Assembly (NCBI GenBank): GCA_024654305.1
Contig: JANLIU010000041.1
Coordinates: 1-24,000, forward strand
Direction of reading: 5' to 3'
Length of the DNA stretch: 24,000 nucleotides
DNA from: Candidatus Parcubacteria bacterium
GTDB taxonomy: Bacteria; Patescibacteriota; Minisyncoccia; Phycocordibacterales; Phycocordibacteraceae
This document shows, piece after piece, positions 1,627-19,299 of this stretch (position 1 is the first letter of the stretch; every line of letters starts with the position of its first letter). Under the pieces are notes generated by a model. That model saw nothing but the letters and a program-made list of their open reading frames with translations. It was not told where the DNA came from and ran no database searches. The position numbers were made by a program, and so were the translations under genes.

Positions 1627-1653
1627 TTGACACTAAATCAACAATAGTATAAC
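1627..1653 (+). promoter_or_regulatory. Candidate promoter for the RAMP-like gene and possibly the whole downstream locus
   Basis: TTGACA (1627-1632), then TATAAC (1648-1653) after a short 15-nt spacer. Divergent from the nusA promoter. Confidence 0.4.
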
Positions 1654-1729
1654 ATTTCTCTCGGCTATATGGCATTCCGCCATCGTGCTTCAGTACCTTC
1701 AACCAACCTACAGACAAGGAGAAGTTCGC

Positions 1730-2341
1730 ATGAAAACGTTCAAAATCCGCTGTGCTGGTATCTCGCCCCTGCTGATGGACCAAATGTCGAAGGCAACTCT
1801 GGAGTCGCTCGCCACCGGCGTGCGCCTGCAGGTCGCCAAGGACCGTCCCGCCGAAGACGTCGCTAAGGAGAAAATCTACCGCGACCCGAACGGCCGCATC
1901 GCCCTCCCCGCCGAGATGCTCTTCGCTGCGCTCGTCGGAGCTGGCAGGAACGTCAAGATCGGCAAGAAAGGCGTCAGCACCGCGACCACCACCCAGCTCC
2001 CGGACTTCCTGTCCATCGCGGAGTCGCATCTGCCGCTCACCAACATCCCCGCGAACGCCAACGGTGCCGAGAAAGACTTCTGGGCCGCCGACATGCGCAA
2101 AGGGATGGGCTACAACGGCAAGACGCCGACCGCCGTCGCAATCATCCGGCCGAAGTTCCCGAACTGGGAATTCGAGGTCACGGTGAAGCTCGACGAGAAG
2201 AAAGCCGGGCAAGACACGGTGATGGCGCTCTTCCAGAACGCCGGCTCCACGCAAGGACTCGGTTCGTTCCGCCCGAACAAAAAAGGCATGTTCGGACGCT
2301 TCGAGGTCGCCGAGATGAAAGAAGTCAAAGCGGCCGCGTAG
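1730..2341 (+). CDS. Hypothetical 203-aa protein with RAMP/RRM-like sequence features (possible RNA-binding protein)
   Basis: ORF 1685..2341 trimmed to MKTFKIR (ATG 1730), which has AAGGAGAAG 8 nt upstream. N-terminal strand plus SPLLM, a LPAEMLFAALVGAGR segment, and a C-terminal glycine-rich loop GLGSFRPNKKGMFGRFEV. These resemble the Cas5/6/7 RAMP pattern, judged by eye only. Confidence 0.75.
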   Translation: MKTFKIRCAGISPLLMDQMSKATLESLATGVRLQVAKDRPAEDVAKEKIYRDPNGRIALPAEMLFAALVGAGRNVKIGKKGVSTATTTQLPDFLSIAESHLPLTNIPANANGAEKDFWAADMRKGMGYNGKTPTAVAIIRPKFPNWEFEVTVKLDEKKAGQDTVMALFQNAGSTQGLGSFRPNKKGMFGRFEVAEMKEVKAAA

Positions 2342-2360
2342 TAACTCGGCTCTGTCGGGG

Positions 2361-2394
2361 ACGGGGGTCGAAAGGCTCCCGTTTGTTTTTTATT
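2361..2394 (+). terminator. Intrinsic terminator after the 203-aa gene
   Basis: ACGGGGGUC-GAAA-GGCUCCCGU forms 9 bp (two G-U pairs) with a GNRA loop, followed by UUGUUUUUUAUU. Confidence 0.7.
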
Positions 2395-2448
2395 GCGTAC
2401 ATTACTGAAGAGCGAACTATCGTGCTCTATACGTCCACTAGACTGTCG

Positions 2449-2526
2449 AGCTGGGGCAAATGAAAATTTGTCCCGCTGTTCGGGAAATGTGTATTTCCCC
2501 TGATGAGCTCGAAAGAGCGAAAACAG
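2449..2526 (+). ncRNA. Hammerhead ribozyme H1 (type III) with 5' clamp hairpin
   Basis: AGC-U-GGGGCAAAU/AUUUGUCCC-GCU hairpin, then GUUC with predicted cleavage after C2481. Stem I GGGAAAU/AUUUCCC, core CUGAUGA, stem II GCUC-GAAA-GAGC, then GAAA-ACAG pairing with CUGU (stem III). Confidence 0.9.
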
Positions 2527-2584
2527 TGTTTCAATAGAGTCTTCTAGTGCTAACTTCATTTCAGTTACCTACAGTACTGTGCAG

Positions 2585-2690
2585 AGTTGGGAGTTCTTCG
2601 GGACTCCCACTGTTCTCCCGATGTGCGTCGGGACTGATGAATCCCCGCCTCCGTTCCACTTCGGACAGGCAGGCGAAAGGACGAAAACAG
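2585..2690 (+). ncRNA. Hammerhead ribozyme H2, variant with a 31-nt insertion in loop II
   Basis: Clamp AGU-U-GGGAGUUC-UUCG-GGACUCCC-ACU (AGU/ACU covaries with AGC/GCU). Cleavage predicted after C2615. Stem I UCCCGA/UCGGGA, core CUGAUGA. Stem II UCC...GGA carries an inserted hairpin (CGCCU...AGGCG), and position 10.1 is A opposite C. Confidence 0.6.
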
Positions 2691-2753
2691 AAATGTTCTG
2701 GTGCGAAGTATGGCACCCTGTTGTGTTGTAGCCTTAGCTCTTCTGAAGTGCAG

Positions 2754-2828
2754 GTCGGAGCTTGCTCCGACAACTTAAGTGCATTCTTACGAGCGCACTT
2801 AAGGCAGTGCTTTCGAAAGAGAGTGCTG
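2754..2828 (+). ncRNA. Module B copy B1: conserved three-hairpin RNA of unknown class
   Basis: Hairpin 1 GUCGGAGC-UUG-CUCCGAC. Hairpin 2 CUUAAGUGC...GCACUUAAG with an apical UUC-UUAC-GAG. Hairpin 3 GCAGUGCUUUC-GAAA-GAGAGUGCUGU. Confidence 0.7.
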
Positions 2829-2886
2829 TAATCCAGTTAACTACTATTCTCTGTTTTAGCCCGCTGTTCTCTCTGTTATTGTATAG

Positions 2887-2963
2887 AGCTGGGGATTCCT
2901 TGCGAATCCCCGCTGTTCGGGAAGTATGGGCTTCCCCTGATGAGCTCGAAAGAGCGAAAACAG
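2887..2963 (+). ncRNA. Hammerhead ribozyme H3 (type III) with 5' clamp hairpin
   Basis: Clamp GGGGAUUC/GAAUCCCC. Cleavage after C2918. Stem I GGGAAG/CUUCCC, CUGAUGA, stem II GCUC-GAAA-GAGC, GAAAACAG. Confidence 0.9.
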
Positions 2964-3061
2964 ATGTTCTAGAAATGAAAGAGTGGTAACGGCCTACACT
3001 CCGCTGTCCTAGGCTGGTCCAAACCACTGCTGACTAGAGTGTCTCCCCCACTCCACTACAG

Positions 3062-3136
3062 GTCGGGGCCTGCTCCGACACCTTAAGTAAATTCGAGGGA
3101 GTTTATTTAAGGCGGTGCTTTCGAAAGAGAGTGTTG
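3062..3136 (+). ncRNA. Module B copy B2
   Basis: Hairpin 1 GUCGGGGC-CUG-CUCCGAC. Hairpin 2 CUUAAGUAAA/UUUAUUUAAG, which covaries with B1. Hairpin 3 GCGGUGCUUUC-GAAA-GAGAGUGUUGC. Confidence 0.7.
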
Positions 3137-3196
3137 CAAATTAAAGTGTGTTCCGCTGGCCTGGTCCATTGTTCGTTTCTCCGGGGTCCACTAAAG

Positions 3197-3271
3197 GGCT
3201 GGGGATTTGTAAAATCCCCGCTGTTCCACGGATGTGAGTCCGTGCTGATGATTCCGAAAGGATGAAAACAG
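3197..3271 (+). ncRNA. Hammerhead ribozyme H4, variant with a U:U pair at 10.1/11.1
   Basis: Clamp GGGGAUUU/AAAUCCCC. Cleavage after C3226. Stem I CACGGA/UCCGUG (covaries). CUGAUGA-UUCC-GAAA-GGAU-GAAAACAG, so the usual G10.1-C11.1 pair is replaced by U/U and the copy may be impaired. Confidence 0.6.
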
Positions 3272-3328
3272 AATCCAGTTACGTGCAGTTACCTCAACTG
3301 TTCTCAAGTTTTCTCCCGTAGACTGCAG

Positions 3329-3406
3329 AGCTGGGATTCTCGCAAAAGAATCCCGCTGTTCGCGGAATGAATGTTCCGCCTGATGAGTCGGAAACGACGA
3401 AAACAG
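3329..3406 (+). ncRNA. Hammerhead ribozyme H5 (type III) with 5' clamp hairpin
   Basis: Clamp GGGAUUCU/AGAAUCCC. Cleavage after C3361. Stem I GCGGAA/UUCCGC, CUGAUGA, stem II GUCG-GAAA-CGAC, GAAAACAG. Confidence 0.9.
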
Positions 3407-3470
3407 ATATCGGCATGCTGTAGGCTTATGCGGAGTTCTCTGTAGTATGGTCAACTCCAGTACTGTCCCG

Positions 3471-3546
3471 GTCGGGGATTCGTCCCCGACACTTAAGTAA
3501 ATTCGAGAGAGTTTATTTAAGGCAGTGCTTTCGAAAGAGAGTGCTG
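3471..3546 (+). ncRNA. Module B copy B3
   Basis: Hairpin 1 GUCGGGGA-UUCG-UCCCCGAC. Hairpin 2 CUUAAGUAAA/UUUAUUUAAG. Hairpin 3 GCAGUGCUUUC-GAAA-GAGAGUGCUGU. Confidence 0.7.
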
Positions 3547-3610
3547 TGAATCAAGTGCCCCTGTGTACAGTATTGTATTCTGCGTTGCACCAAACTCGTG
3601 TGGAGTAAGG

Positions 3611-3686
3611 AGCTGGGGCGAAGTAATTCGCCCCGCTGTTCGCGAGATGTGAGTCTCGCCTGATGAGTCCGAAAGGACGAAAACAG
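3611..3686 (+). ncRNA. Hammerhead ribozyme H6 (type III) with 5' clamp hairpin
   Basis: Clamp GGGGCGAA-GUAA-UUCGCCCC. Cleavage after C3641. Stem I GCGAGA/UCUCGC, CUGAUGA, stem II GUCC-GAAA-GGAC, GAAAACAG. Confidence 0.9.
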
Positions 3687-3749
3687 AAATTAAGTTAAGT
3701 TATGTCGAGTTTAGTACACTAATCACCTCTGCTGCCAGGTTGAGTACAG

Positions 3750-3825
3750 AGCTGGGGCAAAGCAATTTGCTCCGCTGTTCGGAAGATGTATGTCTTCCCT
3801 GATGAGCTCGAAAGAGCGAAAACAG
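3750..3825 (+). ncRNA. Hammerhead ribozyme H7 (type III), immediately upstream of the helicase RBS
   Basis: Clamp GGGGCAAA-GCAA-UUUGCUCC. Cleavage after C3780. Stem I GGAAGA/UCUUCC, CUGAUGA, stem II GCUC-GAAA-GAGC, GAAAACAG. Ends 21 nt before the AAGGAG at 3847. Confidence 0.9.
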
Positions 3826-3859
3826 TTTTGATCTTTGAATCACTACAAGGAGAACTAAT

Positions 3860-5638
3860 GTGGAACATCTCGATCCAGTGCGGTTTTTCCCGCGCAATCG
3901 GTACTCGGCAGTGCTGGGTAATCAAAAGTCTGCATTCAACTTCATCAAAGAAAGCGCCGCGAGCATCCTGGTGCTTGAATGTCCGACGGGAACGGGTAAA
4001 ACCGCCATCGGCTATTCGTATCTGCGGGCCATGCTCGCAAGTGGAGTGAAGCAACCCTTCTACCTCGTGCCAAACAAGACGCTCGCCGAACAAGTGAAAG
4101 GGCTTCATCCTGATGTGCACGCGGTCTACGGGCGGAACGAGCATCCGTGCTTGTTCTATCCGGGAGAAAATCTGCGTGCCGACGAGATACCGTGCTCATT
4201 GCTTCAAGAATGCCCGCACCGCGTCAACCAGGAAACTGGCGAAACGAAGGAGTCGGACGCAGAACGCTGTCCGTACCTGCAACAAAAGTACGAAGCAAAG
4301 CAGGGCAGAGGCATTATCGTCGCAACGCACGCGTTCTACCTCTACTCGGTCTTCTTCGCGAAAGAGTTCGAGCCCGGAGCGGTCGTCATTGACGAAGCGC
4401 ACGGCATCGCGAAGTCTATCCGGTCGGTACTTGAATTTCATATTACCGACTGGAATCTGGGGCGAATGGTGGAGCTCTTAGCTACCATCCTCTCAAGCCA
4501 GGCCGAGGTGCTCGACACCTTCCGTAAGCGGATGATCGCAATCATCAAGGCCAAAGAGGCGTCTAAGAAGACGATTCTCGAGGCCGATGAGATCAGGGAA
4601 CTCCTTGACCTCACGAACGCAATCGATACGCGCGCGGTTGATGCCGAGATTCGGGCGGCCATAGCCGTTGGGCTGGTCGATCGGAAGAAAGACCGTCTAG
4701 CATTAAAGCAACTCGAAATTCTTGGCCGCGATCTACGGATGTACATGCGGTCGTTTGAGTTCGCTCTGCCTACCGAAGCACGCCACCCTCTCAACTTCAC
4801 CTTCGCTTTCTGGAAGCGCGAGCTCGAAGAAGGGAAGCGGGTTCAGTATGAACTCGTGGTGAAGTCGTATTACGTCGCACCGTTGGTGAAGAAGATGCTC
4901 CCCAAGAACGTGCTCGCCTACTCGGCGACTATCGGCAATCCGGAGATTTTCAGCCATGAGACGGGGATTAAGGGAGAGTTTCTTTCCCTGCCGTCCACCT
5001 TCTCGTCTGACAATACTCGGATATTCATGCCGACGGACACGCCGAACTTGTCGGTCAAGGAACGCAATCGTCGTGATAAGACGAAATCGCTTCGTATGAT
5101 CGCCAAAGCGTGTGCAACGTTTGCGAAGAAAGGCATCCGCTCGCTGGTCGTCGTCGCATCAAATGAGGAACGTCAAAAATTCCTCATGCTCGCAGTCGAG
5201 GAGGGTGTGAAAGCGCTTTCCTATGGCGAAGGAGTCACTCCGCGCGCATGCGCAAAGCGATTCCGCGAGGGTGAAGGCGATGTACTCGTCGGCACTGACT
5301 CGAATTACGGCGAAGGTGTGGATCTGCCGAAAGGCATCGCACCGGTCATCTTCTACTACCGCCCGAGCTATCCGCGCCCTGACGACCCTGCATCGGTCTT
5401 TGAGGAACAGCGCTTCGGCGGCCAGCGCTGGCATGTCTGGAATTGGCGGGTGATCATTGGTCTTTTGCAGGTCCGTGGTCGCAATATCCGCTCTGTTGAA
5501 GATACTGGGGTAACATTCCTGATATCTCAGCAGTTCCGGCGCTTCGCTTATGGTTCGCTCCCCGAGTGGCTCAAGCCGGCGTATGTCGGCGGCAAGACAT
5601 TCGAGGAGTGCGTGAAGGACACGGTCAAAATGTTATAG
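3860..5638 (+). CDS. XPD/Rad3/DinG-family SF2 helicase with a predicted 4-Cys Fe-S domain (592 aa)
   Basis: GTG start at 3860, 7 nt after AAGGAG. Walker A CPTGTGKT and DEAH box VIDEAHG. Four Cys lie between motifs Ia and II (HPC, IPC, ECP, RCP), as in XPD/DinG Fe-S domains. C-terminal motifs VLVGTDSNYGEGVDLP and LLQVRGRNIRSVEDTG. Confidence 0.85.
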   Translation: MEHLDPVRFFPRNRYSAVLGNQKSAFNFIKESAASILVLECPTGTGKTAIGYSYLRAMLASGVKQPFYLVPNKTLAEQVKGLHPDVHAVYGRNEHPCLFYPGENLRADEIPCSLLQECPHRVNQETGETKESDAERCPYLQQKYEAKQGRGIIVATHAFYLYSVFFAKEFEPGAVVIDEAHGIAKSIRSVLEFHITDWNLGRMVELLATILSSQAEVLDTFRKRMIAIIKAKEASKKTILEADEIRELLDLTNAIDTRAVDAEIRAAIAVGLVDRKKDRLALKQLEILGRDLRMYMRSFEFALPTEARHPLNFTFAFWKRELEEGKRVQYELVVKSYYVAPLVKKMLPKNVLAYSATIGNPEIFSHETGIKGEFLSLPSTFSSDNTRIFMPTDTPNLSVKERNRRDKTKSLRMIAKACATFAKKGIRSLVVVASNEERQKFLMLAVEEGVKALSYGEGVTPRACAKRFREGEGDVLVGTDSNYGEGVDLPKGIAPVIFYYRPSYPRPDDPASVFEEQRFGGQRWHVWNWRVIIGLLQVRGRNIRSVEDTGVTFLISQQFRRFAYGSLPEWLKPAYVGGKTFEECVKDTVKML

Positions 5639-5691
5639 AGTAGCGTTCTGTGTCGTGTCCTGCTCCTGTGGTTCTCTAACGTCACCTACGG

Positions 5692-5780
5692 GGCGGCCTC
5701 TGTCAGTAATGACATTGGTCGCCACTTAAGTGCATTCGCAAGAGTGCATTTAAGATAGTCCTTTTGCAAAAGAGGATTGC
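5692..5780 (+). ncRNA. Module B copy B4 (divergent, in the helicase 3' UTR)
   Basis: Hairpin 1 is replaced by the longer GGCGGCC...GGUCGCC enclosing GUCA-GUAA-UGAC. Hairpin 2 CUUAAGUGCA/UGCAUUUAAG with apical UUC-GCAA-GAG. Hairpin 3 UAGUCCUUUU-GCAA-AAGAGGAUUG has a different sequence but the same fold. Confidence 0.6.
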
Positions 5781-5862
5781 GAACGAAGTGTCGTGCTCTT
5801 TCGTCAAGTAAAATATTCAACTCTCTCGTGCATTGTCGTGACTTATCGCGAACTAATCTAAA

Positions 5863-5940
5863 GAGCTGGGACTTTCTCGTAAGGTCCCGCTGTTCGGGAA
5901 GTGTGAGCTTCCCCTGATGAGTCCGAAAGGACGAAAACAG
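5863..5940 (+). ncRNA. Hammerhead ribozyme H8 (type III) with 5' clamp hairpin
   Basis: Clamp GGGACUUU/AAGGUCCC. Cleavage after C5895. Stem I GGGAAG/CUUCCC, CUGAUGA, stem II GUCC-GAAA-GGAC, GAAAACAG. Confidence 0.9.
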
Positions 5941-6019
5941 CAAACATCGTTATCTATTCTGGTGTTTTCTGTTGCCAAGCGTCCTACTGTTGGACATCGT
6001 ACGCAATGCCACAGTGCAG

Positions 6020-6096
6020 GTCGGGACTTCGGTTCCGACACTTAAGTACATTCTCGTAAGTGTACTTAAGGCAGTGCTTTCTCAAGAGAGCGCCGC
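6020..6096 (+). ncRNA. Module B copy B5
   Basis: Hairpin 1 GUCGGGAC-UUCG-GUUCCGAC. Hairpin 2 CUUAAGUACA/UGUACUUAAG. Hairpin 3 GCAGUGCUUUC-UCAA-GAGAGCGCCGC (one A/C mismatch). Confidence 0.65.
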
Positions 6097-6153
6097 AAAT
6101 GTGGTTACGTGGACTAATGTCGAGTTCTCTTCACCAAGCTAGACCTCTCTACG

Positions 6154-6229
6154 GGATGGGGATTCGCGAGAATCCCTGCTGTTCGGGAAGTGTGCACTTC
6201 CCCTGATGAGCCGGAAACGGCGAAAACAG
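6154..6229 (+). ncRNA. Hammerhead ribozyme H9 (type III), clamp base slightly degenerate
   Basis: Clamp GGGGAUUC-GCGA-GAAUCCCU, with GGAU in place of AGCU at the base. Cleavage after C6184. Stem I GGGAAG/CUUCCC, CUGAUGA, stem II GCCG-GAAA-CGGC, GAAAACAG. Confidence 0.85.
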
Positions 6230-6303
6230 AGCATTACTCTAGAGTGAATTACAGTTCTGTATTGCACGGCTGACTCCACTGCGATAGTCTGTTCTACCCC
6301 GCA

Positions 6304-6381
6304 GGTCGGAACTCCGGTTCCGACAACTTAAATGTATTCGCGAGAGTACATTTAAGGCGGTGCTTTCGAAAGAGAGTGCTG
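6304..6381 (+). ncRNA. Module B copy B6
   Basis: Hairpin 1 GUCGGAAC-UCCG-GUUCCGAC. Hairpin 2 CUUAAAUGUA/UACAUUUAAG with apical UUC-GCGA-GAG. Hairpin 3 GCGGUGCUUUC-GAAA-GAGAGUGCUGC. Confidence 0.7.
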
Positions 6382-6449
6382 CAATCCACTTGAGTGTCCT
6401 AGTGTGGCGTTCTCTGCGTTTCTGTGAGTTCCACTTTTCTCCTGTATAG

Positions 6450-6527
6450 AGCTGGGATTCTTTTCGAAGAATCCCGCTGTTCGCGGAATGAATGTTCCGC
6501 CTGATGAGCTCGAAAGAGCGAAAACAG
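6450..6527 (+). ncRNA. Hammerhead ribozyme H10 (type III) with 5' clamp hairpin
   Basis: Clamp GGGAUUCUU-UUCG-AAGAAUCCC. Cleavage after C6482. Stem I GCGGAA/UUCCGC, CUGAUGA, stem II GCUC-GAAA-GAGC, GAAAACAG. Confidence 0.9.
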
Positions 6528-6582
6528 CATCCCAGCAGAGTAGAGTGAGTCGGAGTACACTGTCGCACAGTAAATTCCTCTA

Positions 6583-6658
6583 GGCTGACTTTCTAGCCAC
6601 CACTTAAGTGCATTCTCACGAGTGTATTTAAGGCAGTGCTTTCGTAAAGAGAGTGTTG
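6583..6658 (+). ncRNA. Module B copy B7 (weak hairpin 1)
   Basis: Hairpin 1 is reduced to GGCU...AGCC. Hairpin 2 CUUAAGUGCA/UGUAUUUAAG. Hairpin 3 GCAGUGCUUUC-GUAAA-GAGAGUGUUGC. Confidence 0.6.
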
Positions 6659-6737
6659 CAAATCTGTAGGATCTACTATCCTGTTGCGTCCTGCAGTACA
6701 CTGTCGTGACCTGCATCCCTACCAATGTTCTCTACCG

Positions 6738-6773
6738 AGCTGACCCCGCCCACGGCGGGGTTGCTTTTTTGTG
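6738..6773 (+). terminator. Intrinsic terminator closing the second array, built on the clamp-hairpin frame
   Basis: AGCU-G-ACCCCGCC-CAC-GGCGGGGU-U-GCU-UUUUUUGUG. This has the same AGC...GCU framing as the hairpin preceding every hammerhead, but is followed by a U-tract instead of GUUC plus a ribozyme. Confidence 0.75.
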
Positions 6774-6808
6774 TATCAATATTACCGACCAGTGCTAGTA
6801 TTGAGAAC

Positions 6809-7672
6809 ATGCCTGAAAAACAGCCCATCTACCGTAATACCGAAGACGAACGCATGTACGAGAGTTCTTATTTGAAGCCAGAAGAAGCTCATGCGCGCGC
6901 CACGGGAGCTCTGGCTGAATATGAAATCAAGCCCGAGATATTCGCCGGCCTCTATGGCGAAGACATCCTCAAACGCGATGCCGACGAGGTGGCACACCTC
7001 GAAAAAGCTTTTGAAAAAACACCTGCAAAGATTTACGGCGATATCCTCGAGGCTGTCGCGTGCGAACACGGGGAATTAAGCGATTGGTTCGGATCGAAGT
7101 CGCAGGTCATCAAGACGGCCCGTTTTGACGATTACAAGAACAAGATTGATATGATTGTTGAAACGGAGTCGGACAATAACCAATTTTCCCATCTGGCTCT
7201 TGGTATTGATGTCACGTTCGGGAGTCGGGACTTGCATAAAAAGTTTGATGCGATAAAAGCGAACATAGACGGAGGGCGACTCGGGCAAGTAAAATATTTC
7301 CATTCAGACCGTCAACATATCACCGGGCGCTTGAGGAAGATCCCGCAGGTGGTCGTCGGAGTCGAGATCGAGAGAGTGAAGGAGCTCGGTCTCTTGTGGA
7401 TGAATCGGCGGAATAAAGAGCTCGCTGAACACCCGGTGCAGATGGCAATTCTTGAAGAATCGGCATTACAGCTAAAAACATTTGCTGAATACGCAAAAAG
7501 CATCGGTAAAAATGATCTCACTGCCATCTTTGAGAGAGAATTGCAAAAAATAAATGAGATGCTGGAGGAGAAGAGGGAAGCCGGCATCATGAGCCTAGAA
7601 CAGGATAAGGTTTTTGAAGAGATAGAAAGGAATCTCGCCTCGTTTGCCACTCCCGCCACCGCACAAATTTAA
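6809..7672 (+). CDS. Hypothetical protein (287 aa), no family recognised
   Basis: ORF 6725..7672 trimmed to MPEKQPIY (ATG 6809), because the first 28 codons overlap the array terminator. TAGTAT sits 7 nt upstream of the ATG. The sequence is charged and helix-rich. Confidence 0.6.
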   Translation: MPEKQPIYRNTEDERMYESSYLKPEEAHARATGALAEYEIKPEIFAGLYGEDILKRDADEVAHLEKAFEKTPAKIYGDILEAVACEHGELSDWFGSKSQVIKTARFDDYKNKIDMIVETESDNNQFSHLALGIDVTFGSRDLHKKFDAIKANIDGGRLGQVKYFHSDRQHITGRLRKIPQVVVGVEIERVKELGLLWMNRRNKELAEHPVQMAILEESALQLKTFAEYAKSIGKNDLTAIFERELQKINEMLEEKREAGIMSLEQDKVFEEIERNLASFATPATAQI

Positions 7673-7727
7673 TAAACAAAAAGAAAGCCACTCCGAAGAG
7701 CAGCTTTGGGCAAAGAGCAAGGTGGCT
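7673..7727 (-). terminator. Possible terminator for the minus-strand gene 7731..8207
   Basis: Minus-strand AGCCAC...GUGGCU stem with a structured interior, followed by UUUCUUUUUGUUUA. The large loop makes this tentative. Confidence 0.35.
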
Positions 7728-7730
7728 GGT

Positions 7731-8207
7731 TCAGGCAGAAGAGTTCAGAACTCCGCCGAGATGAGCTTCTCCGGTAGAGACTGTGTTCTTGGATTTGGAT
7801 GCGACTTCCTTCGGCTCGGCAAACCTGAAGAGATCGCCGGTCTCAGCGATGGATGTGTCCAAGCACAATGTCCAATCGCTACAAAACACGAACGGTTTGT
7901 GAACGAACACCGGATATTGCCGCAAGATCTCGTTCCGGAAGAGGCGCCCAACGATGTCACAGAGGTCCACCTTCATCGCAAACGCGTCTGCATCTTTTTG
8001 CGGGCTCAGCTTCTGGCATTCCAGGTCCAGCATGTGCTGGAGCGTGTAGAGGCGTTTGATCTTGTGTCCTGCTTCGCCGACCGCAACATGCTGCTTTTCG
8101 CGCTGCTGTAATGGCGCGATGAATTGCTTTGCCGAGATGGCCGCGAATCTGCCGTTTATTTCTGACAAGATTCCGACGGCGTTCGTTGCACTTTTGATAT
8201 TTTCCAT
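7731..8207 (-). CDS. Hypothetical protein (158 aa)
   Basis: ORF 7731..8288 (-) trimmed to MENIKSATNAV (ATG 8207), which has GGAAAGGAA upstream. Its composition looks more protein-like than the overlapping + ORF 7644..8111. Confidence 0.5.
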   Translation of the reverse strand: MENIKSATNAVGILSEINGRFAAISAKQFIAPLQQREKQHVAVGEAGHKIKRLYTLQHMLDLECQKLSPQKDADAFAMKVDLCDIVGRLFRNEILRQYPVFVHKPFVFCSDWTLCLDTSIAETGDLFRFAEPKEVASKSKNTVSTGEAHLGGVLNSSA

Positions 8208-11834: not shown

Positions 11835-12394
11835 TAAAGCGTGGATTCACCCTCGTTGAGACATTCGTCGTCATCGCAATAAGCGTGGTTGCACTCATCG
11901 CGCTTGTAAATCTTTTTCTTATTTTCAATACCACGTACGGAAATCAGCAAGCGTTCATGGCCGCCGCCGGCTCCGCCGGCGGCGCGATGAACGCATTCGA
12001 AGCGGCGATCATGCCCGCGGACCACGTACTTGCTTCGCACAGTTTTAGCGGCACAACGTATTCTTCCGGCGCAACAGTGCTCGTTCTTTCTATTCCCGCC
12101 GCCGATGGTTCCGGCAATATCATTGCCGGAGTTGAGGATTACATCGTTTTTTATTCTTCTTCCGCTAAGCTCTACCGCTTGACCCAAGCGGGCGCAGGCA
12201 GTACTCGCATCTCCGGACTGAAAGAATTGAGTTCGACGCTGAATTCCATTTCATATACCTATGACAATGCCGACTTCACGAAAGTCACGAACGTGACGGC
12301 CGACATCGTGACGCAAGCACAATTTAAACAGCAGATAGTACAAAGTCATTTGAACGAACAGATATACCTGCGTAATCTCCCACTCTCACCATGA
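11831..12394 (+). CDS. Prepilin-type pseudopilin / minor pilin
   Basis: ORF 11762..12394 trimmed to MIKRGFTLVETFVVIAISVV (ATG 11831). It has an ATGA overlap with the upstream stop. Confidence 0.8.
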   Translation: MIKRGFTLVETFVVIAISVVALIALVNLFLIFNTTYGNQQAFMAAAGSAGGAMNAFEAAIMPADHVLASHSFSGTTYSSGATVLVLSIPAADGSGNIIAGVEDYIVFYSSSAKLYRLTQAGAGSTRISGLKELSSTLNSISYTYDNADFTKVTNVTADIVTQAQFKQQIVQSHLNEQIYLRNLPLSP

Positions 12395-18379: not shown

Positions 18380-18997
18380 ATGGAAACTTTTATAAATAAC
18401 TCTTACTATATTTTCGCCAAAGATATAATCACTTTTTTATTTACCGGCACAGGACTCGTAATTGCGGGTATGGGGCTCGCTACTTGGAAGAAACAAATTA
18501 AAGGTGTTAAGGAATTCGAGACTGCTCATGATTTGCGTTATTCCATTCTGAAACTGCGAAATGCGATTAGGAATGTCCGCAATCCTGTTATTTGGCCTTC
18601 GGAAAGCTACCAAGCAATGCAAGACTACAAGATTAAGTATCCGAACAAATTGGAAACTGACGCGGAAAAAGATTCTCACGCGTATGTTTATGAAATTAGA
18701 TGGAAAGCAATTCTGGCTGCTACAGCAGAAATGGAGTCACATCTGCTCGCGGCAGAAGTGTTGTGGGGTCCAGAAATATTAAGTTTGATAAAGCCACTGA
18801 ATAAAGAAATCGGTGAACTAAACATCTCCTTGAGACAATATTTCCAACCCGAGTTAAGGACGAAAGATTTCATGGAACTTCATAACGTTATTTATTACAA
18901 AGGAGATTATAACGAGGACGGCACAGATGATTTTGACAATCGTGTACTTCAAGCTATTGACGGGGTTACGTCGTATATAAAAAACAAAATCTCTTAG
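18380..18997 (+). CDS. Hypothetical membrane-anchored protein (205 aa) in an AT-rich island
   Basis: One N-terminal TM helix (IITFLFTGTGLVIAGMGLATW). No recognisable family. Markedly AT-rich compared with its neighbours. Confidence 0.55.
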   Translation: METFINNSYYIFAKDIITFLFTGTGLVIAGMGLATWKKQIKGVKEFETAHDLRYSILKLRNAIRNVRNPVIWPSESYQAMQDYKIKYPNKLETDAEKDSHAYVYEIRWKAILAATAEMESHLLAAEVLWGPEILSLIKPLNKEIGELNISLRQYFQPELRTKDFMELHNVIYYKGDYNEDGTDDFDNRVLQAIDGVTSYIKNKIS

Positions 18998-19026: not shown

Positions 19027-19299
19027 ATGCCAAATTTAACTCGAGAAGGAAAAGAGAAACTGTACATCTCAAAAATGACTGAACTCCAACGGAGGTGGGG
19101 AAATCCTATTGATGATGATTGGAATTTCACCGACTGGACTGATGGGCAACTGGATAAAGGATTAACAGACACAATCGGGCAACTTAGGTTCGAAAAAGGT
19201 CTCTCCTTTATAAAAACTACTATCTCTTACATCTTTTACCTTTTCGTGATTCTTGGTGTGGGTGGACTTTTGATTTTTGGAATTAAACAACTTTTTTAG
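19027..19299 (+). CDS. Hypothetical small protein (90 aa) with a C-terminal TM anchor
   Basis: C-terminal ISYIFYLFVILGVGGLLIFGI. TACAAT lies 6 nt upstream of the ATG. AT-rich. Confidence 0.5.
   Translation: MPNLTREGKEKLYISKMTELQRRWGNPIDDDWNFTDWTDGQLDKGLTDTIGQLRFEKGLSFIKTTISYIFYLFVILGVGGLLIFGIKQLF

Follow-up and report, generated by a model that had tools for sequence, protein, structure and literature searches.

The DNA analysed here, a stretch of 24,000 nucleotides of the contig JANLIU010000041.1 (hereafter the window), is chromosomal DNA of a Kaiserbacteria-like bacterium from the CPR (candidate phyla radiation, or Patescibacteria). Between the genes for NusA and PilB it carries a locus, with all its elements on the + strand, where a promoter, the gene for a 203-aa RAMP protein, an intrinsic terminator, a first RNA array, the gene for a 592-aa Fe-S helicase, a second array and a second terminator follow one another (Table 1). 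Array 1 contains seven hammerhead ribozymes and three copies of another structured RNA, here called module B, and array 2 contains three hammerheads and four module-B RNAs. As argued below, the locus is very probably a chromosomal Viral Interference Programmable Repeat (VIPR) system, of the family described in two preprints of April 2026 (bioRxiv 10.64898/2026.04.26.720920 and its structural companion 10.64898/2026.04.26.720927).

Both arrays are non-coding, with 1.45 kb of DNA between the first terminator and the helicase open reading frame (ORF) and 1.1 kb after it, and their GC content (0.45-0.51) is lower than that of the genes (0.55-0.66). Structured elements are separated by 55-64 nt in array 1, with one gap of 96 nt, and by 53-81 nt in array 2. 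An earlier reading made from the letters alone (the sequence-only reading) had already claimed this order of elements, the low-GC non-coding arrays, their regular spacing, the RAMP-like nature of the first protein and the XPD/DinG affiliation of the second, together with the lack of cas1/cas2, integrase and reverse transcriptase genes in the window. All these points held in the present analysis, with every element at the coordinates given, and the arrays do read, as it had suggested, as non-coding RNAs of guide type whose units would be separated by self-cleaving ribozymes.

The two proteins and the RNA elements

The 203-aa protein has no match in Pfam, NCBIfam or PADLOC, but matches phrog_4652 (4e-20), a PHROG family of unknown function. 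Its AlphaFold2 model, built on 25 homologues, reached a pLDDT of 89.4, and as a predicted fold it finds its best PDB matches in Csm3, type VII Cas7 and Cmr4 (E ~1e-6, TM ~0.5), as well as matches to viral RAMP proteins in BFVD. The C-terminal motif AGSTQGLGSFRPNKKGMFGRF is the glycine-rich loop of RAMP proteins, the G-loop itself being listed as GLGSFRPNKKGMFGRF. The closest homologues come from metagenome-assembled genomes (MAGs) of Kaiserbacteria, Staskawiczbacteria and other Parcubacteria. The family profile aligns by hhalign to the Vipr protein of phage SUSP1 (AVU07_agp039), which has been characterised by experiment, with a probability of 97.3% and an E of 2.2e-11, over 130 columns that include the G-loop, and tblastn directly matches the protein to Felixounavirus orthologues. 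Vipr has been described as a RAMP of ~20 kDa with a G-loop and a thumb (bioRxiv 10.64898/2026.04.26.720920), and the 203-aa protein, a small single-domain RAMP with a G-loop and with homology to a characterised Vipr, is a member of that family. The SUSP1 residues D177 and W178, which read the two guanines of the repeat (bioRxiv 10.64898/2026.04.26.720927), align to S and F in the G-loop of the window protein, a replacement that would be in keeping with a repeat anchor whose first G has been lost in the window lineage.

The second protein is a superfamily 2 helicase of the XPD/DinG family, with Helicase_C_2, DEAD, ResIII and DEAD_2 domains (PF13307 match, 3e-11) and a further match to phrog_2488. 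Its Walker A motif GTGKT and its DEAH box are conserved among homologues, and the four cysteines of the Fe-S domain located between motifs I and II (Cys97/112/118/137) are kept in 10 of 12 of them. The nearest solved relatives are archaeal XPD proteins (PDB, 6e-9).

At the gathering score no Rfam family matched the locus; in E-value mode eight type III hammerheads were recovered at 22-38 bits, all below the gathering score of 48.5, and direct reading gave ten copies. In eight of the ten the core is canonical (CUGAUGAG...CGAAA) and the cleavage site reads UUC. Hammerhead 2 has the core CUGAUGAA, with A at position 10.1 and a 30-nt insert in stem II, and hammerhead 4 has a U/U pair at 10.1/11.1; both variants may be inactive or slow, leaving some units joined. 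Every hammerhead is preceded by a GC-rich hairpin, the clamp, placed 7 nt before the cleavage site. A covariance model of clamp plus hammerhead, one of the checks that had been suggested with the sequence-only reading, retrieved all ten window copies together with another 34 from 12 related loci, and every copy shares the strand of the protein gene. In the alignment pairing holds for 97.9% of the cells, and compensatory changes occur in 21 of 23 pairs (8/8 in the hairpin portion), a level of covariation that none of 500 shuffles attained, with slid and shuffled controls far lower. Stems I to III covary, the U16.1-A15.1 pair is invariant in 43/43 aligned copies, and the elements have diverged to a mean column identity of 76%. 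With a CUGAUGA...GAAA core in the eight canonical copies, the A15.1-U16.1 pair, a NUH site and an open stem III, these motifs have the hallmarks of type III hammerheads, for which cleavage is predicted.

Two minor features of the ribozymes may be added. In L001, which of the well-assembled relatives is the closest, a ribosome-binding site and a 62-aa ORF (11856-12044) come after the last hammerhead of array 2, at a place where the window has its terminator. In the predicted (centroid) fold of a cleaved unit (2482-2615), the ACAG in the 5' hammerhead remnant is base-paired to the CUGUUC at the 3' end of the same unit; such pairing would juxtapose the unit ends, in a geometry that could permit self-ligation.

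Module B, present in seven copies in the window, comprises three hairpins: P1, of variable sequence, P2 of 13 bp and P3 of 11 bp. Its fold is supported by a z of -6.65 and by some covariation, and it matched no Rfam family even at E <= 10. With a model of P2 and P3, strong copies were restricted to the clade of the window (seven in the window, two each in L001 and L017, one in L018). Module B is likely a lineage-specific 3' tail of the guide RNA (vrRNA); with less confidence, it may be either such a tail or a second processing signal.

The segments between these elements are built of pentanucleotide repeats, whose consensus in the window is NNN[G/C]U, and make up to ~17 tracts of 10-17 pentamers in the two arrays. 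Within the tracts, a fraction of 0.41 of GT-GT distances is divisible by five, versus 0.20 expected (z 5.7), and the 5-nt periodicity gives z = 12 for [GC]T and z = 16 for T; the observed values were reached by 0 of 2000 shuffles in the GT test and by 0 of 1000 for each word. The repeat of the relatives is NNNGU, mostly with 7-14 pentamers per tract, and in a logo that draws on 21 loci (1907 in-phase pentamers) positions 1-3 are near-uniform, with G at 0.90 in position 4 and U at 0.91 in position 5. Read from its U, NNNGU becomes UNNNG, which assigns it to the YNNNG class of vrRNA repeats. Every tract passes in register into a clamp hairpin or into P1 of module B, and tracts are predicted to be unstructured (z for two of them in Table 1) and tails structured. 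The tracts of window and relatives are tandem hypervariable pentamers, as in vrRNA, and in the window each is followed by a structured 3' element, the role of tail being a putative one for both clamp and module B. Most likely, hairpins and module B are 3' tails and the informative part of the RNA is the pentamer tract. The sequence-only reading had taken the structured elements as the repeats of a repeat-spacer array, a view that does not survive the 5-nt periodicity it had overlooked. As a side observation, most tracts hold about one occurrence of the word GUUCUC or CUGUUCUC (e.g. at 2862, 3300, 3436, 6126, 6410 and 6725), which resembles the hammerhead strand CUGUUC of stem III and the cleavage site.

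Related loci and the VIPR family

A metagenome scan found 261 relatives of the 203-aa protein, and 80 loci were kept (L-numbered). Among those with at least 35% identity and enough flanking DNA, nearly all have the helicase (40-58% identical) and periodic arrays on the same strand. Protein, helicase and arrays occur together in ~30 independent CPR loci with differing chromosomal neighbourhoods; in four MAGs of Saccharibacteria the protein gene is oriented divergently from helicase and arrays. All-against-all clustering of ORFs left only the RAMP (53 loci) and the helicase (32 loci) as conserved genes, and the search for a third one by the same means gave nothing beyond a ~125-aa protein in 6 loci. 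The window thus has the minimal composition of one vipr gene and one accessory vap gene flanked by non-coding arrays. L005 and L007, with proteins 55-58% identical to that of the window and unrelated neighbourhoods, repeat this plan (protein, ~2.2 kb of non-coding DNA, helicase, further non-coding DNA) without any hammerhead; their arrays have a hairpin roughly every 100 nt, with GT every 5 nt in between. Arrays are colinear between strains that are ~99% identical, and strains with 85-89% gene identity have in common only tails and ribozymes, a turnover compatible with more or less neutral drift and, taken alone, no proof of spacer acquisition.

More distant homologues (26-33% identical) are found in phage-like contigs. 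One of them, L097, has 1.6 kb of uninterrupted (NNGGY)n without hairpins (6555-8140) downstream of its Vipr homologue, possibly the architecture that the preprint calls a 'staggered array'. In this contig the RAMP/repeat region comes after the genes for a phrog_2488 helicase and for a protein of 180 aa. Period-5 spectral peaks also flank the homologous gene in L078, L079, L080, L083, L088 and the cultured Mycobacterium phage Zizzle. In Zizzle (MZ274306), ~240 nt of (NNGGC)n (L099 5585-5825, ~37307-37547 of the record) lie directly upstream of the Vipr homologue, gene 54, and the annotated coding sequence 'gene 53' that overlaps the tract is probably a mis-called ORF over vrRNA. The 12-bp repeats of Tweety gp54 in cluster F mycobacteriophages were set aside as a different feature. 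In the reverse direction, a scan of IMG/VR by pattern only, for (GTNNN)x10, gave 120 loci, ~70 of which are not simple repeats or microsatellites, and in 35 of these ~70 a Vipr homologue adjoins the repeat.

Some individual relatives have additional genes or RNAs. A second, divergent Vipr paralogue (29-34% identical) sits between the first vipr and the helicase in L011 (11846-12373) and L020 (8992-9507). An unannotated protein of ~125-175 aa, with weak DUF2809 and SHOCT hints, recurs within or after the arrays in 6 loci (Table 1), and may be an optional third component. In L017 a PemK-family toxin and a small partner gene adjoin the VIPR cassette (4460-5016); the Vipr of this locus is 99% identical as protein and 85% in DNA, and the flanks of the cassette differ among close relatives. 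A LOOT RNA (RF03000, 71 bits, above its gathering score) lies at 852-975 of L054, ~5 kb upstream of the VIPR locus.

The vrRNAs originally described consist of 9-16 YNNGG repeats followed by a structured 3' tail (bioRxiv 10.64898/2026.04.26.720920). One Vipr protomer occupies each repeat and sequesters GGY (bioRxiv 10.64898/2026.04.26.720920 and.720927), and pairing with double-stranded DNA is by the NN bases, with every third base of the target passed over. Seven VIPR types were distinguished, with NNNGG, YNNNG and NNNNG as alternative repeats; small-RNA sequencing confirmed the arrays interspersed with hammerheads, which belong to types I and V; DNA nucleases or helicases are among the accessory vap genes and occur in types III-V; Vipr was placed outside the Cas5/6/7 clades, and 25.5% of the systems reside in prokaryotic chromosomes (bioRxiv 10.64898/2026.04.26.720920). 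In agreement with the published layout, we found AVU07_agp039 of SUSP1 between one upstream and three downstream (NNGGT)n-plus-tail units.

The window shares with these systems the small single-domain RAMP with a G-loop, the pentamer tracts with a structured 3' element, a repeat of the YNNNG class, same-strand arrays that flank the genes and are interspersed with hammerheads, the helicase as accessory gene and the lack of adaptation genes. By protein, repeats, tails and layout the locus therefore belongs to VIPR, and its targeting activity would follow by analogy with the published systems. Since the family has already been described, with hammerhead arrays, YNNNG repeats and helicase accessories included, the locus adds to it and does not constitute the undescribed system that the sequence-only reading had announced. 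It differs in its CPR host, as neither CPR nor Patescibacteria is mentioned in the preprint text, in having [G/C]U rather than GGY as anchor, in the S/F that replace D177/W178 of the SUSP1 Vipr, and in module B, confined to the clade of the window. Possibly new are the location on a CPR chromosome, the use of [G/C]U as anchor, the pairing of the system with an Fe-S helicase, and module B, although the supplement of the preprint may cover them.

TIGR-Tas (PMC12045711) is likewise a non-CRISPR guide system, of phages and CPR bacteria, that includes arrays of variable stem-loops, but it relies on Nop-domain proteins, box C/D motifs and dual spacers of 8-12 nt, none of which is present in the window. 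TIGR-Tas stem arrays were rejected as an identification because protein and motifs are different, with no Nop-domain Pfam match among the proteins of the locus.

The interest of the locus lies in this context. VIPR was proposed only in 2026, as a pre-CRISPR form of RNA-guided DNA recognition with a gapped code, and the present locus offers a clean chromosomal example from CPR bacteria, whose genomes are tiny and among which few defences are known. It unites three less-studied variants, namely a YNNNG-type repeat, ribozyme-processed arrays and a helicase partner, and its ~17 natural guides, the ~30 related loci and G-loop changes that track the anchor motif could be used to approach the pairing rule and the role of the helicase.

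Proposed action and competing explanations

From their sequence, the hammerheads would cut after C17, 7 nt past each tail hairpin, releasing RNAs of 134, 135 and 139 nt made of hammerhead remnant, tract and hairpin, and longer ones of 280-308 nt with hammerhead, tract, module B, tract and hairpin. Hammerhead 7 would free the helicase mRNA, starting at 3781, which would extend on its 3' side through units of array 2 up to the cleavage site at 5895. By analogy with the type II systems of SUSP1 and P. fulva, one Vipr protomer would bind each 5-nt repeat to build a helical filament, holding the [G/C]U anchor and presenting the three variable bases to double-stranded DNA that belongs to a competing phage or mobile element. 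More tentatively, and by analogy with CasDinG, the helicase may act as an effector recruited to the bound target, and module B may serve as an alternative tail or processing signal.

Several observations weigh against this picture. Tracts decoded with 0 skipped bases gave only chance matches (E of at least 1) against INPHARED (50,697 phage genomes), four exact IMG/VR scans (0- and 1-skip, for one guide of the window and one of L005) returned 0 matches, and 70 guides searched against 3.6 Mb of the fetched loci were indistinguishable from shuffled ones. The pairing rule has been published for GGY/NN repeats only, and NNN[G/C]U differs from them. The periodicity of the window is modest and weaker than that of its relatives (autocorrelation at lags 5, 10, 15, 20 and 25 of 1.5-2.3 versus 4-6 times expectation), which, together with two hammerhead cores that deviate from the consensus, raises the possibility that part of the units are in decay. 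No clear promoter was found in the stretch that separates the first terminator from array 1, leaving read-through of that terminator, and the function given to the helicase in the locus is purely an inference by analogy.

Part of this evidence would suit an RNA without targets, a TRAP-like scaffold or sponge on whose anchor dinucleotides the RAMP polymerises, the variable bases being mere spacers. The empty target searches and the lack of adaptation genes are compatible with it, as are positions 1-3, near-uniform and evolving about neutrally, and the fact that arrays cannot be aligned between strains with 85-89% identical genes. The units, however, differ from one another and have not been homogenised; moreover, homologous type II VIPR ribonucleoproteins are reprogrammable, binding and silencing the DNA that their variable bases specify, and published type III and V vrRNAs have targets in IMG/VR (bioRxiv 10.64898/2026.04.26.720920). 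We therefore consider a sponge improbable.

Type IV-A CRISPR-Cas also combines a RAMP backbone with a DinG-family helicase and lacks a nuclease, and both it and the locus in the window would probably bind or unwind without cutting. A degenerate or minimal relative of it, with Cas7, CasDinG and CRISPR RNAs matured by ribozymes instead of Cas6, would agree with the Csm3/Cas7-like fold of the 203-aa protein and with the best match of the helicase to a defence model, PADLOC typeIV_DinG (CAS-IV-A associated, 1.3e-40 across its full length). Yet the best solved relatives of this helicase are archaeal XPD proteins, and it conserves four XPD-like Fe-S cysteines. CasDinG, for its part, has a vestigial Fe-S domain. 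The window has no CRISPR array with identical direct repeats and captured spacers: its hairpins vary from unit to unit, and the would-be spacers are pentamer-periodic rather than arbitrary captured sequence, with an RNA register of 5 nt instead of 6 nt. No Csf1 (Cas8-like), Csf3 (Cas5), Cas6/Csf5 or Cas11 was found and there is no acquisition machinery, only two genes being conserved and PADLOC matching the helicase alone, while the protein profile aligns to the SUSP1 Vipr, which the preprint sets apart from the Cas5/6/7 clades. Membership in type IV-A is accordingly very unlikely; from the likeness drawn by the sequence-only reading, what stands is a RAMP and a DinG-like helicase with ribozyme-processed guides, and what falls is membership, in the absence of CRISPR repeats, Cas5, Cas6 and Cas8.

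Clustered hammerheads could also do no more than cut a polycistronic phage-derived transcript into single-gene mRNAs, with functionless RNA in between. Such clusters are known beside prophage genes (type III motifs, Perreault et al. 2011, PMC3088659), with several per transcript and one just upstream of a helicase gene, haloviruses HF1/HF2 have a hammerhead 13 nt upstream of a helicase gene, and in the window as in L001 the ribosome-binding site of the helicase gene comes directly after hammerhead 7. Nine of the ten window hammerheads, by contrast, flank non-coding tracts rather than genes. They would part non-coding guide RNAs from one another, and a tail hairpin is fused to the upstream side of each, in which they differ from the prophage motifs. 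Since relatives retain arrays devoid of hammerheads, and the periodicity and its linkage to Vipr would be left unexplained, mRNA processing as the only function is extremely unlikely. A satellite-like tandem repeat giving circular RNAs of ~135 or 290 nt, also raised by the sequence-only reading, has a negligible chance of being correct, for apart from the end pairing described above, which could allow hammerhead-catalysed ligation, nothing favours it: the units are not copies of each other, conservation being limited to ribozymes and tails, and the locus is chromosomal, syntenic between relatives, linked to two proteins and without a replicase.

Within VIPR, the helicase-linked clade of CPR bacteria might be a functionally distinct branch in its code, its Fe-S helicase effector and the role of module B, a tentative proposal that we hold as rather doubtful. 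As the anchor has shrunk from GGY to [G/C]U, with the S/F replacement in the G-loop, three variable bases would be exposed, and the code might read contiguous triplets (0-skip) instead of NN plus a skipped base. In such a branch the XPD-like Fe-S helicase could take the place of simple repression, and module B, alternating with the hammerheads, could serve as a tail or processing RNA of a new sort, perhaps as a ribozyme or an RNase signal.

Feature coordinates and surroundings

Table 1. Elements of the probable VIPR locus, in window coordinates; the last row refers to related loci, in their own coordinates.
Feature	Position	Strand	Evidence
Sigma-70-like promoter (TTGACA-17-TAACAT) upstream of vipr	1627..1655	+	promoter scan
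vipr gene, 203-aa single-domain RAMP, C-terminal G-loop GLGSFRPNKKGMFGRF	1730..2341	+	profile, fold, homology
Intrinsic terminator 3' of vipr	2359..2384 (also given as 2359..2394)	+	terminator scan
Array 1 leader, poor pentamer periodicity (7.5/20)	2400..2449	+	pentamer register
Tail hairpin (clamp) and hammerhead 1, predicted cleavage after C2481	2450..2526	+	Rfam E-value mode, covariance model
vrRNA repeat tract, 12 pentamers NNN[G/C]U	2527..2585	+	pentamer register
Clamp and hammerhead 2, variant core CUGAUGAA, long stem II insert, predicted cleavage after C2615	2586..2690	+	covariance model, 59 bits
vrRNA repeat tract	2691..2751	+	pentamer register
Module B copy 1 (P1-P2-P3), probable vrRNA 3' tail	2752..2832	+	covariance model, fold
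vrRNA repeat tract	2833..2887	+	pentamer register
Clamp and hammerhead 3, predicted cleavage after C2918	2888..2963	+	Rfam E-value mode, covariance model
96-nt segment, weak periodicity (14.5/40)	2964..3059	+	pentamer register
Module B copy 2	3060..3140	+	covariance model
vrRNA repeat tract	3141..3197	+	pentamer register
Clamp and hammerhead 4, variant U/U at 10.1/11.1, predicted cleavage after C3226	3198..3271	+	covariance model
vrRNA repeat tract, unstructured (z -0.4)	3272..3329	+	pentamer register, fold
Clamp and hammerhead 5, predicted cleavage after C3361	3330..3406	+	Rfam E-value mode, covariance model
vrRNA repeat tract	3407..3470	+	pentamer register
Module B copy 3	3471..3550	+	covariance model
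vrRNA repeat tract	3551..3611	+	pentamer register
Clamp and hammerhead 6, predicted cleavage after C3641	3612..3686	+	Rfam E-value mode, covariance model
vrRNA repeat tract, 13 pentamers, unstructured (z +1.9)	3687..3750	+	pentamer register, fold
Clamp and hammerhead 7, predicted cleavage after C3780 (79 nt before helicase start codon)	3751..3825	+	Rfam E-value mode, covariance model
Accessory helicase, 592 aa, XPD/DinG family, Walker A GTGKT, DEAH, Cys97/112/118/137	3860..5638	+	profiles, structure matches
vrRNA repeat tract, first of array 2	5641..5692	+	pentamer register
Module B copy 4, long P1	5693..5783	+	covariance model
vrRNA repeat tract	5784..5864	+	pentamer register
Clamp and hammerhead 8, predicted cleavage after C5895	5865..5940	+	Rfam E-value mode, covariance model
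vrRNA repeat tract	5941..6018	+	pentamer register
Module B copy 5	6019..6099	+	covariance model
vrRNA repeat tract	6100..6154	+	pentamer register
Clamp and hammerhead 9, predicted cleavage after C6184	6155..6229	+	Rfam E-value mode, covariance model
vrRNA repeat tract	6230..6304	+	pentamer register
Module B copy 6	6305..6385	+	covariance model
vrRNA repeat tract	6386..6450	+	pentamer register
Clamp and hammerhead 10, predicted cleavage after C6482	6451..6527	+	Rfam E-value mode, covariance model
vrRNA repeat tract	6528..6580	+	pentamer register
Module B copy 7	6581..6662	+	covariance model
Last repeat tract, continuing into terminator hairpin	6663..6735	+	pentamer register
Intrinsic terminator, end of locus	6741..6763 (also given as 6741..6773)	+	terminator scan
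Unannotated protein of ~125-175 aa in related loci	L054 7397-7786, L048 1977-2348, L062 10561-10926, L051, L053, L005 13894-14430		

Upstream of the locus the NusA gene occupies positions 151-1611 of the minus strand, and downstream of it the type IV pilus genes for PilB and PilC are followed by those for phosphoglycerate kinase and RecJ. A 315-aa ORF listed at 6725-7672, without Pfam or PHROG match, has its start within the terminator, so its true start is probably further downstream (ATG near 6810); different genes occupy its position in the relatives. Farther away, the GC content of the segment 18300-19500 falls to 0.39-0.43, versus ~0.55 around it. This segment covers the ORFs at 18380-18997 and 19027-19299, and its AT skew is strongly positive and then reverses.

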